NCBI RefSeq assembly: GCF_050920415.1 | Contig: NZ_CP169309.1 | Origin: Escherichia coli | GTDB lineage: Bacteria; Pseudomonadota; Gammaproteobacteria; Enterobacterales; Enterobacteriaceae | Length of the DNA: 64,000 nt | Direction: 5' to 3' (one strand) | Shown here: positions 56,753-61,111 of the stretch, piece after piece | Layout: each line of letters opens with the position of its first letter | Position numbering within the stretch: the stretch's first letter is position 1 | Made by a program: the position numbers and the translations under genes | Notes under the pieces: generated by a model | Told to the model about the DNA's origin: nothing | What the model saw: the letters and a program-made list of their open reading frames with translations, nothing else | Database searches by the model: none

Positions 56753-57447
56753 TTATCCACGAGGCGCAAAAGCGGCGGCGGCTTCCTGCGCCCTTTTCAG
56801 GCACTCCTTACACACCGATTTTTCTGGTGCTTCCTCATCCTCATCGTTGTTATCATTCTGATCGGACGACGCATTACTGTCATTTTGCTCAGCCGCTAAA
56901 CTTTTATCATCTGCCAGCGCTTTCAAAACCGCCGGTTGTAGCGTCGGCACCGGCGTTCCCGGACTACCGCCGCTATTGAGATTGATTTTCGGCCCGACGA
57001 TGTCCACGCCCCCTGAATGGATGACCACAAACGAACCACCCACCTTCAGGGTGATTTTACCGCCACTCTCCAGTACGATTTCATCCCGGACCTTCATTCC
57101 CAGCGCACCGGTAATCTTCCTCGCCAGGTCGCCCTTCACCTCCAGACTGTGCTTTCCCTCCACCAGACTGATATGGTTCCCCGTCGTCTTATGCTCCTGC
57201 TTCCCTTCCACCGTCACTTTACGGTCGTTTCTGACATACAGGCCGTCATCGTGACTCACGCTCACCGTCCGGTCATTCGTCACCTTCAGCGTCTGGTCAT
57301 TACGTACCGTTATGCGCCGGTCGTTCGCCACCGTGATACTCTGGTCGTGGCCCCCTTCTTTTCTGGTGCCGACCTCAACCGTCTGCCCCTTCACCACCCT
57401 TATCTTCTGGTCGTTACCGATGGTCTCCGTATGGTCATGCTTCACGT
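56753..57447 (-). pseudogene. vgrG: vgrG, C-terminal part (gene interrupted by an IS21-family insertion)
   Basis: 230-aa frame with VgrG beta-helical repeats (…ITVANDRRITVRNDQTLKVTNDRTVSVSHDD…); in frame with the N-terminal part once the IS and one target-site duplication copy are removed. Confidence 0.8.
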
Positions 57448-57547
57448 GTCAGCGCCAATGATATAAGACAGTAATTCACCATTTGGATTGTCCGCTCCAC
57501 CCAACATGTTGTTTCCTTAAGGTTCCTACACCACAAAGGGAACACTC

Positions 57548-58719
57548 ATGCTGAGCAGAGAGGACTTTTACATGATAAAGCAAATGCGCCAGCAAGGTGC
57601 GTATATTGTTGATATTGCCACTCAGGTTGGTTGCTCTGAGCGGACTGTCAGACGGTACCTGAAATACCCGGAACCTCCGGCCAGAAAAACACGCCACAAA
57701 ATGGCCAAACTCAAGCCGTTCATGGACTATATCGACATGCGTCTGGCTGAGAATGTCTGGAACGGCGAGGTCATCCTGGCGGAAATCAAAGCGATGGGTT
57801 ATACCGGTGGCCGTTCCATGTTGCGTTACTACATCCAGCCCAAACGTAAGATGCGGCCATCGAAGAAAACGGTTCGCTTCGAAACTCAGCCCGGTTACCA
57901 GCTACAGCATGACTGGGGAGAAGTTGAGGCTGAGGTTGCCGGGCAACGATGCAGGGTTAACTTCGCGGTTAATACGCTGGGGTTCTCACGTCGCTTCCAT
58001 GTCTTCGCGGCACCAAAGCAGGATGCTGAACATACCTATGAGTCACTGGTCCGCGCCTTTCGCTACTTCGGCGGCAGCGTGAAAACCGTGCTGGTCGATA
58101 ACCAGAAAGCCGCAGTGCTGAAAAATAACAACGGGAAGGTGGTGTTCAACTCCGGGTTCCTGCTGCTGGCCAATCACTATGGCTTCCTGCCACGGGCCTG
58201 CCGTCCACGAAGGGCCAGAACCAAAGGTAAGGTGGAACGGATGGTGAAATACCTCAAGGAAAACTTCTTCGTCCGGTACCGCCGGTTCGACAGCTTCGCC
58301 CATGTTAATCAGCTACTGGAGCAGTGGATGGCTGACGTTGCCGACAGGCGGGAACTTCGCCAGTTCAGGCAGACACCGGAACAGCGCTTCACGCAGGAAC
58401 AGGTGCATCTGCAGGCGCTGCCAGGTACGGACTTCGATACCAGCTACTTCGATATCCGTCATGTCTCCTGGGATGGCTATATCGAGGTTGGCGGGAACCG
58501 TTACAGCGTGCCGGAAAGCCTGTGTGGCCAGCCGGTATCAATACGGATCTCGCTGGATGATGAACTGCGATTTACAGTAATGAGCAACAGGTAGCATCGC
58601 ACCGTCTCTGTTCGGCTGTATACGGCTGGCAGACCGTGCCGGAGCATCACGCCCCACTCTGGCAGCAGGTCAGTCAGGTGGAACACAGGCCGTTGAGTGC
58701 CTATGAGGAGCTGTTGTGA
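57548..58719 (+). pseudogene. istA: IS21-family transposase istA, frameshifted near the 3' end
   Basis: 348-aa ORF ends at 58594; the expected C-terminus (…WQTVPEHHAPLWQQVSQVEHRPLSAYEELL*) continues in another frame and ends at the TGA overlapping the istB start. Confidence 0.75.
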
Positions 58720-59512
58720 TGCATGAACTGGAGACACTGCTGGGTCGTCTTAAAATGGAACATCTGGGCTACCACGTTGAAAGCCTGCTGGAGCAGGCGG
58801 CCAAAAAAGAACTGAACTACCGCGAGTTCCTGTGCATGGCGTTGCAGCAGGAATGGAACGGGAGGCATCAGCGCAGTATGGAGTCCCGGCTGAAACAGGC
58901 CCGCTTCCCGTGGGTCAAAACGCTGGAGCAGTTCGACTTCGGCTTCCAGCCAGGTATCGATCGTAAGGTCGTCCGTGAGCTGGCCGGGCTGGCGTTCGTG
59001 GAGCGTAGCGAGAACGTGATCCTGCTGGGTCCGCCTGGTGTGGGTAAAACGCACCTGGCAGTCGCTCTCGGGGTAAAAGCGGCGGACGCTGGTCATCGGG
59101 TGCTGTTCATGCCACTGGATAAGCTGATCGCCACACTCATGAAGGCAAAACAGGAAAACCGGCTGGAAAAACAGCTACAGCAGCTTGGTTATGCCCGGGT
59201 ACTGATACTGGATGAGATAGGCTATCTGCCGATGACCCGCGAGGAAGCCAGTCTGTTCTTCCGGTTGCTGAACCGTCGATATGAAAAAGCGAGCATCGTG
59301 CTGACGTCAAATAAAGGGTTCGCCGACTGGGGAGAGATGTTCGGCGATAACGTGCTGGCAACGGCAATCCTGGATGACTGCTACACCACTCAACCACACT
59401 GAACATCAAAGGAGAAAGCTACCGGTTAAAGGAAAAACGCAAAGCGGGAGTGCTGGCAAAAAACGCCACGCCAATCAGTGATGATGAAATGGCGGCAAGC
59501 GGACAACATTAA
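58719..59512 (+). pseudogene. istB: IS21-family helper ATPase istB, frameshifted near the 3' end
   Basis: Walker A (LLGPPGVGKTHLAVAL) and Walker B (LILDEIGY); ORF ends at 59402 while the expected C-terminus (…[22 protein letters not shown]…) continues in another frame. Confidence 0.75.
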
Positions 59513-59569
59513 TGACCAATAGCGGACATTAAAAATGGCGAAAAACGGCCAATAATCTTGGCGTTGACA

Positions 59570-61111
59570 CACGTCCGTCGTCCGGTCGTTAAGCACCTCC
59601 GTGTCCATGTTCTTCTGCGCGTGGATATACACCTGCTCACTGTCCGTCGCATCCTCGAAACGCAGTTCATTAAAGCCGCTTCCTTTATAGGTCTTCGAGC
59701 GGATGGTCATCTGCGTCCGCGTGCCCGGTAAATCCCCCGGTGAACGGTTGTCTTCATGGTAGGTCCGCCCCGTCACAATGGGCTGGTCCGGGTCGCCGTT
59801 CAGAAAGTCCACTATCACTTCCTGACCCACACGCGGTATCGCCAGATTGCCGAACCCCGGTCCCGCCCATGCCTGCGACACCCGTATCCAGCATGAACTC
59901 TCCTCCGTCATCCCGTGATAACGGTCCCAGTGAAACTTCACCCGTACCCGGCCATGTTCGTCGCAGAATATCTCCTCGCCCTTCGGCCCGGTCACGATGG
60001 CACTCTGCGGGCCGTCCACCTTCGGCTTCGGCAGCGGCGCGTGACGCCACGTCCTGTCCGCCGGTATCACCTCAAACTGATTGCTCAGCGTCGTTCCCTC
60101 GCCGTGACTCCCGTGCAGCGCCTGCGGCTGTTCTCCCCGCAGTGTGCTTCCCACAACCTGCCATTCCCGGTTCAGCGTCCCTGAGGGATGGCCCGTCAGC
60201 CGGAACCGCGTTCCCGGCCACAGTCGCGCCGTGTTACACACCCCGCTCGCCGTCTCCGCCCCGTTCCGCCACCCTTCCGTCTGGTAACGCGCAAAGTCCT
60301 GGCCGTGCTGCTCATCCTTGAAACGCCCCGGATAATCAAATATCTCGTACTGCGTTCCCTGCCCGTTCAGGCTCTCCCCGGCATGGCTGTAGTACCCCGG
60401 CCACCCCGGCGTTTTGAACATATAATCCTGCGTCTCCACCGACGCCACGCTTATCTGCGCACGGTAACGAAACTCGCTGATGTACTCCGTCGTTCCCCCG
60501 GTCGTCGTGTCCGGGTTAAACGCCAGCGCCCCCATTCCCGTCAGCCCCGCCACGTCATCACACACCGCCAGCTTCTGTTCCGGCCCTTCCTGACTGCAGC
60601 GCTCATAAAAGAAGATACCTTCCTCCGCCCACAGCCGGGTCAGGAACGCCAGGTCGCTCTCCCCGTACTGCACGCAGAACTCCCGCGCCGGGTGCGCCTC
60701 ATAGAACAGCGGCATCCACGCCGTCACCCCGTTCTCTTCAAGAAGCTGTGCTGATATCGTCTGAATGTCCTGCTGCTGGAAGATACGGAAGTTCTGCCGT
60801 AACCCTGCCCGCCACAGCGGCGGGCTGATGCTCAGGGAATAACGCATCTGCCAGTCGTTGTTCTCACCGAGCTGCACCTCCGTCACGATACCGCTGACGT
60901 AACGCTGTGCAGTGTCGCCCTGCCAGACCGTCAGCAGCGCGCTTTTCTCCAGAAAATCCTCCGCCGTCAGGTCAGACAGTCCGCTGGCGATATCCACATC
61001 CAGGATGAACGGTGTGCAGTGGTGCTGGTACAGACGGAAGCTCACCACTGCCGTCGCCATCTCCACAATACCGTCCACCGACAGCGTGAAACGTAATCCT
61101 TCTGAGGACAT
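59570..61111 (-). pseudogene. vgrG: vgrG, N-terminal part (gp27/gp5-like spike domains), interrupted by the IS21-family element
   Basis: N-terminal 514 aa with VgrG features (MSSEGLRFTLSV…, …YIHAQKNMDTEVLNDRTTDV); the 561-aa ORF runs on into IS-derived sequence. Confidence 0.85.

Follow-up and report, generated by a model that had tools for sequence, protein, structure and literature searches.

In the stretch of Escherichia coli DNA analysed here, 64,000 nucleotides of contig NZ_CP169309.1 (RefSeq assembly GCF_050920415.1; hereafter the window), vgrG, a spike gene of a type VI secretion system (T6SS), is split by ISEc62, an insertion sequence (IS) of the IS21 family. The split gene is a pseudogene of a VgrG. 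Both genes of the element, istA and istB, carry a frameshift in the sequence as given, and an earlier note, made from this sequence alone, took the element to be decayed and the knockout to be stable for that reason. The overall reading that we consider likely is an ordinary ISEc62 knockout, in which the IS is probably not decayed and the inactivation of vgrG would be stable anyway. The split vgrG is an ordinary insertional pseudogene; both the element and the type of event that produced it are known, and it is already annotated in RefSeq: in the sister genome MFDS1022581, an incomplete gp5-domain protein without its N-terminus and a truncated tssI lie around istA and istB.

Anatomy of the ISEc62 insertion in vgrG

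The interrupted gene, vgrG (tssI), lies on the minus strand. Its N-terminal fragment, native codons 1-512, occupies positions 59570-61111, and its C-terminal fragment, residues 513-743, occupies 56753-57446 and comprises most of the gp5-like beta-helix and an acidic C-terminal extension. As the gene stands, the N-terminal open reading frame (ORF) runs from 61111 to a stop at 59426; it is native coding sequence as far as 59570, and its last 49 codons are derived from the IS. The exact 561-amino-acid product of this ORF is on record as WP_432780843.1/XVM71746.1. When the IS and one copy of the target repeat are removed, a sequence of 2,232 bp is obtained with a continuous ORF of 743 amino acids that reads ...LNDRTTDV-KHDHTETIG... 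across the junction, which bears out the continuous VgrG frame that had been predicted. Comparison with intact vgrG genes of related strains agrees with this reconstruction. The 30-nt restored junction is found exactly in the uninterrupted vgrG orthologue of strain N96, upstream of tla1, which represents the empty site, and the restored protein is identical at 742/743 positions to an uninterrupted E. coli VgrG (P0011, WP_052953558.1).

The restored VgrG matches TIGR03361 with 589.5 bits and contains the Pfam domains Phage_GPD (residues 33-328), Phage_base_V (385-451) and Gp5_trimer_C (468-542), with a second Gp5_trimer_C match at 546-622. The IS splits the protein after residue 512, that is, inside the first Gp5_trimer_C match and upstream of the second match and the C-terminal tail. 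The gp27-like hub, the OB-fold and the gp5-like beta-helix are thus joined in one polypeptide in the restored sequence but not in the gene as it stands.

The element itself occupies positions 57447-59569, with istAB on the plus strand, opposite to vgrG. Its length is 2,123 bp here, compared with 2,125 bp for the canonical element. The left terminal inverted repeat lies at 57447-57458 (TGTCAGCGCCAA) and the right one at 59558-59569 (TTGGCGTTGACA); the right end matches the reverse complement of the left end at 11/12 positions, and both ends are conserved in all copies compared. Sub-terminal repeats are present at 57475-57496 and 59521-59542, and the sub-terminal repeats include inverted and direct ones. 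The target-site duplication was first described as the 5-bp direct repeat CACGT, and this sequence is indeed present at 57443-57447 and 59570-59574. The T at 57447, however, doubles as the opening base of the conserved TGT end of the element, and all ISEc62 copies compared start with TGTCAG, as judged from the junctions of seven copies. Target duplications at five other ISEc62 insertions are 4 bp long in four cases and 5 bp long in one. In view of this overlap and of the 4-bp length seen at four of these five sites, the duplication in the window is most likely CACG (57443-57446 on the left, 59570-59573 on the right), with the fifth base seemingly coincidental. The restored sequence is the same whether a 4-bp or a 5-bp duplication is assumed.

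Assignment to the IS21 family, likewise proposed in the earlier note together with the inverted-repeat ends, is upheld by both genes. The DDE transposase gene istA (57548-58719, plus strand) scores 280.7 bits against NF033546 (transpos_IS21; NCBIfam cut-off 160), and istB (58719-59512, plus strand), which encodes the AAA+ helper ATPase, scores 258.7 bits against NF038214 (IS21_help_AAA; cut-off 200) over profile positions 2-212 of 232. The stop codon of istA and the start codon of istB overlap at 58717-58721 as ATGA. Like the family models IS21 and IS5376, the element therefore has two overlapping genes, istA and istB, and it shares with the family imperfect TGT...ACA termini, sub-terminal repeats and a target duplication of 4-5 bp. 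The element is 98.3-99.9% identical over 100% of its length to copies that RefSeq labels ISEc62, which is the source of the name used here. Full-length ISEc62 occurs in 708 of 5,426 complete E. coli genomes. The window copy differs from canonical ISEc62 in being 2 bp shorter and in having one frameshift in each gene, both of which are probably sequence errors. Programmed frameshifting in istA and istB was considered and ruled out, since intact copies have continuous ORFs.

An independent insertion of the same element was seen in E. coli GPEC1186 (NZ_CM142789.1; positions 3457-5581 of the retrieved locus, L008), where an intact ISEc62 interrupts another of the vgrG genes of the hcp-vgrG locus, one with DUF2169 and PAAR-like cargo. 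The element there sits at a position of its own, is flanked by a TCGG duplication and again runs antisense to vgrG. Two independent insertions in the same orientation are known in vgrG genes of this locus, but a preference of ISEc62 for vgrG targets is given even less weight than the mutational process at Dam sites considered below. A search of the literature on IS-disrupted E. coli T6SS-1 vgrG genes and on ISEc62 found nothing relevant.

The earlier note allowed that resequencing might expose the insertion as an artefact of assembly. The insertion, identically flanked, recurs in MFDS1022581 (NZ_CP169399.1), whose flanking DNA shows 100.0% identity to that of the window over 20 kb, in AP025741.1 and in a 2011 draft, AEXD01000005.1. 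The idea that the IS was misplaced into vgrG during assembly is vanishingly improbable, given that the same junctions and target duplication occur in four independent assemblies, the 2011 draft included, and that the exact truncated VgrG product is on record at NCBI; a search for points in its favour found none. The insertion goes back to an ancestor of a small E. coli lineage, and at least four sequenced strains have inherited it.

Frameshifts at GATC motifs in istA and istB

Compared with intact 2,125-bp copies, istA lacks one G at 58568/9, so that its ORF stops at 58594 and encodes 348 amino acids rather than 390. This loss is unique to the window with respect to all six other ISEc62 copies compared, and no exact match to the variant was found among the 5,426 genomes. 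In istB, one C is missing at 59375/6 on the plus strand, which changes GATCGAC to GATGAC, and the ORF stops at 59402 after 227 amino acids rather than 264. The only exact match to this C loss among the 5,426 genomes is in MFDS1022581, in a non-orthologous ISEc62 copy associated with a fimD-usher gene. Two substitutions, again given for the plus strand, accompany the deletions. A G>A change at 58172 destroys a GATC and replaces D with N in IstA; it is absent from the six other aligned copies. A C>T change at 58572 lies next to the istA deletion, and together the two alter GGATCT to GATTT at 58568-58572. The C>T change recurs in a second non-orthologous copy of MFDS1022581, located in the gene next to yibI (the yibH copy).

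All four of these lesions, which are private to the window when the orthologous copies are compared, fall on the G or the C of GATC, the motif methylated by Dam, and they destroy 3 of the 7 Dam sites of the element. The chance of such coincidence between lesions and GATC was estimated at about 3e-7 for three independent hits, and p is about 1e-7 for four lesions out of four. Unique DNA presents a different picture: all 23 GATC sites that it shares with N96 are kept (23/23), no GATC site outside the IS differs between the window and MFDS1022581, and none of the 10 substitutions that distinguish the two in unique DNA is at a methylation motif. Within the IS, 7 differences from MFDS1022581 were counted, against 0.45 expected from the divergence of the flanks.

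The orthologous ISEc62 copy of AP025741.1 has an intact istA (390 amino acids) and an intact istB (264 amino acids). Across 5.7 kb (55428-61127), the sole differences between AP025741.1 and the window are those at 58172, 58568, 58572 and 59375 and four bases of a chimeric vgrG 5' end described below. The orthologous copies in MFDS1022581 and AEXD01000005.1 carry private lesions other than those of the window. Decay of the IS is doubtful: the lesions are private, each of them affects a G or C within a GATC site, and the orthologous copy in AP025741.1 is intact. Of the claim that both genes are frameshifted near their 3' ends, the two 1-bp deletions stand as features of the sequence, whereas the word “decayed” does not follow safely from them.

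The frameshifts are likely to be residual long-read errors in a hybrid-polished assembly rather than true decay, an interpretation that draws on the pattern of the lesions. In this scheme, nanopore-type basecalling errors at methylated GATC motifs would have produced the two deletions and two substitutions in the IS, and short reads, being unable to polish a multi-copy repeat, would have left them uncorrected. Nanopore bacterial assemblies have been reported to contain modification-induced C>T and G>A errors, and read accuracy is lower at the G and C of GATC (Genome Res 2024, PMC11610603). The part of the Polypolish report that concerns repeats indicates that they keep errors after short-read polishing (PMC8812927). 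The window resembles this published pattern: its G>A and C>T changes fall on G and C bases within GATC, only multi-copy elements are affected, and unique DNA is clean. It departs from the pattern in the nature of two of the four lesions, which are deletions of 1 bp instead of substitutions. An unpolished assembly made from long reads only was considered as a simple cause and judged unlikely, in view of the lack of GATC lesions in unique DNA.

A fifth private lesion was found outside the IS. A 1-bp deletion at 50572 splits ltrA (49988-51310), the reverse transcriptase gene of a group II intron, and destroys a Dcm CCAGG site, in line with the pattern of the IS lesions; it is the only other 1-bp deletion private to the window, and the group II intron is also a repeat. 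As a separate observation, three ISEc62 copies of MFDS1022581 (L001, L004 and L007) have one frameshift each of their own: a TATA shortened to TA, an A6 run reduced to A5, or a GATC that has lost its C. This suggests that the MFDS1022581 assembly has the same repeat-polishing problem. When the truncated IstA, the IstB with a GTG start, the ltrA fragment and the C-terminal piece of VgrG were looked up by exact sequence in a protein collection, none had an entry.

Some considerations count against sequencing error. Extending the error model to single-base deletions at GATC is an extrapolation, as the published work documents substitutions (PMC11610603), and the model is derived from the lesion pattern alone, not from the sequencing platform. 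Identical lesions could also pass from copy to copy through gene conversion among truly defective ones. If the copy in the window were truly decayed and both frameshifts real, the element would make neither full-length IstA nor full-length IstB and would be non-autonomous. The deletions, which stand in the sequence as given, would remove the end of the IstA beta-barrel and its extended C terminus, as well as the C-terminal helices of IstB that carry sensor II, and these regions matter for activity (PMC11208146). Moreover, private lesions are also present in ISEc62 copies of the sister assemblies. Nonetheless, we regard true decay as unlikely: it does not account for the placement of every lesion on GATC, for the excess of differences in the IS over its flanks or for the occurrence of identical lesions in non-orthologous copies, and three other assemblies have the orthologous copy without these lesions, one of them being otherwise identical over 5.7 kb apart from the chimeric 5' end. 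Even if real, decay is not what stabilises the vgrG knockout.

Two further explanations would also make the lesions real. According to the first, real alleles are shuffled among the ISEc62 copies of the lineage by gene conversion, and the window copy is a mosaic of defective donors. While the sharing of the 58572 substitution with the yibH copy and of the 59375 deletion with the fimD-usher copy is consistent with this proposal, the 58172 substitution is in none of the six other aligned copies, the 58568 deletion has no exact match among the 5,426 genomes, and the proposal leaves unexplained why every lesion lies in GATC; we consider it very improbable. According to the second, a mutational process focused on Dam sites inactivates the ISEc62 copies of this lineage, for example if hemimethylated GATC sites of freshly transposed DNA are nicked by MutH and the nicks are then processed with errors. 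Such a process, to which we would give hardly any credence, would be expected to leave every copy in every strain with frameshifts of its own, arising independently.

The practical value of the observation is methodological. Mobile elements of complete genomes that look “decayed” can owe this look to basecalling errors at methylation motifs that are beyond the reach of polishing in repeats. Scans that score the decay of insertion sequences or introns should check lesions against GATC and CCWGG motifs and ask whether they are shared with orthologous copies.

The T6SS locus and the chimeric 5' end of vgrG

The split gene belongs to a minus-strand operon of hcp, vgrG, tla1, three tli1a genes and tle1, which is divergent from tssB at 62497. 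hcp (tssD; 61328-61846, minus strand) lies directly upstream of vgrG and scores 209.3 bits against TIGR03344. Downstream of vgrG is tla1 (55976-56740, minus strand), which encodes the DUF4123 adaptor/chaperone of Tle1 and scores 222.2 bits against NF053803 (cut-off 200). It is followed by three tandem tli1a (DUF3304) immunity genes (54027-55662, minus strand), assigned from their ORFs and the RefSeq annotation of orthologues; one of the three copies was scored and gave 206.8 bits against NF053804. The three tli1a paralogues share 86-88% DNA identity and lie upstream of a single tle1. The phospholipase effector gene tle1 (51943-54042, minus strand) is intact and encodes 699 amino acids with matches to PF09994 and PF22137; its product is 98% identical to the Tle1 of N96 over the full length. 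At 53996 the window has a run of seven G where MFDS1022581 has six, and the annotated Tle1 is shorter in the latter; the Tle1 of the window is full length, as in N96. The G6 run of MFDS1022581 looks like a homopolymer error or a mutation in the sister assembly.

The 5' end of the split vgrG is chimeric. A site-by-site comparison with three vgrG paralogues of MFDS1022581 places the crossover on the minus strand within 60752-60762: positions 59574-60752 correspond to vgrG-C of MFDS1022581, and the sequence from 60762 through hcp corresponds to vgrG-A. The window is without about 11.4 kb that is present in MFDS1022581 and that includes two intact vgrG modules. Absent from the window are thereby the C-terminal end of vgrG-A together with its cargo, an M35 peptidase; an IS2; two PAAR genes; vgrG-B with Tae4 and its immunity gene; and an M23 peptidase. 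In AP025741.1 and AEXD01000005.1, as far as the loci were retrieved, vgrG-B and the Tae4, PAAR and M23 genes are found upstream of the split vgrG. The chimeric 561-amino-acid product occurs on one contig only. The difference reflects either a private recombinational deletion between 99%-identical vgrG repeats or a collapse of the assembly at this vgrG repeat of ~1.5 kb.

Several other features of the window were seen with the help of the annotation of the sister genome. Positions 1-39200 hold a complete-looking Flag-2 lateral flagellar cluster (lafA and flg, fli and flh genes); about 100 bp of MFDS1022581 is absent from its flgL region at 7327-7335, and a DNA cytosine methyltransferase and a type II restriction endonuclease are encoded as a pair at 16705-19463, between flgA and flgM. 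Downstream of tle1, between yafV and the group II intron (about 47400-49800), there are degenerate ISAs1 transposase fragments and a gene for an integrative and conjugative element (ICE) protein.

Stability of the knockout and delivery of Tle1

The argument that the IS cannot excise by itself and that vgrG is stably inactivated as a result is not valid. For insertion sequences in general, the transposase does not repair the interrupted gene, and precise excision, here between 4-bp repeats, is a rare, host-dependent replication event. Because movement of an IS does not rebuild its target, the inactivation of vgrG would be stable whatever the state of the element. IstA and IstB could also be supplied in trans by other ISEc62 copies of the kind present in the sister genome MFDS1022581, where four places match the element (three of these were looked at).

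Given the position of the insertion, the truncated VgrG would keep the gp27-like hub and the OB-fold and lose most of the gp5-like beta-helix together with the C-terminal extension. By analogy with Pseudomonas aeruginosa VgrG4a, the lost extension would be the recruiter of Tla1 and Tle1, and the spike would no longer carry the intact Tle1 encoded downstream. In P. aeruginosa, Tla1 and Tle1 are recruited by the final ~20 residues of the C-terminal extension of VgrG4a, and mutation of these residues abolishes binding (JBC 2026, PMC13133936). The window has the same gene set as this VgrG4a-Tla1-Tle1-Tli1a module, namely vgrG, the DUF4123 gene tla1, the DUF3304 gene tli1a and tle1 (PMC13133936), and its Tla1 and Tli1a score above the NCBIfam cut-offs; it differs in that vgrG is interrupted upstream of the extension and tli1a is present in three tandem copies. 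Tla1, Tli1a and Tle1 are themselves intact in the window. Since the C-terminal extension is uncoupled from the rest of VgrG, loading of Tle1 on this spike is probably lost, which would leave Tle1 stranded unless another spike carries it. Two points call for caution: the VgrG-Tla1-Tle1 interaction is known from P. aeruginosa and not from this E. coli trio, and a scan for promoters and terminators that might indicate polarity or outward promoters gave counts no better than those of shuffled sequence.

A second comparison is offered by the Sci-1 system of enteroaggregative E. coli, in which, according to work attributed to Flaugnatti et al., the T6SS-1 phospholipase Tle1 is reportedly delivered by the neighbouring VgrG1 via the VgrG C-terminal region. 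VgrG1 is said, in the same work, to bind Tle1 directly through a transthyretin-like (TTR-like) C-terminal domain, without a DUF4123 adaptor. By comparison, the VgrG of the window has an acidic, unstructured-looking tail and a Tla1 adaptor, and TTR-like sequence is found instead on a paralogue, P0008 (XVM71453.1).

This paralogue bears on how far the knockout reaches. The earlier note had expected consequences for Tle1 delivery, and had recognised that a second intact vgrG elsewhere might serve the cluster. Loss of Tle1 loading is a reasonable expectation, whereas overall firing of the T6SS may survive via a paralogue: P0008 is an intact VgrG of 801 amino acids that appears to be encoded in the same genome as XVM71746.1, each being recorded on a contig of 5,311,592 bp, so that a second intact vgrG is probably present. 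It matches the restored VgrG at 675/806 aligned positions, with most of the differences in its distinct TTR-like C-terminus; in other genomes its gene lies on an orphan island, next to a pair of ABC-transporter/FtsX genes. In MFDS1022581, eight places are similar to the N-terminal region of vgrG. Firing may survive despite the split gene because of the intact paralogue and these several vgrG-like places. The case is a routine one, in which an IS has knocked out one T6SS spike among several interchangeable ones, and it predicts that this lineage carries a stranded Tle1 that is intact and protected by its immunity genes.

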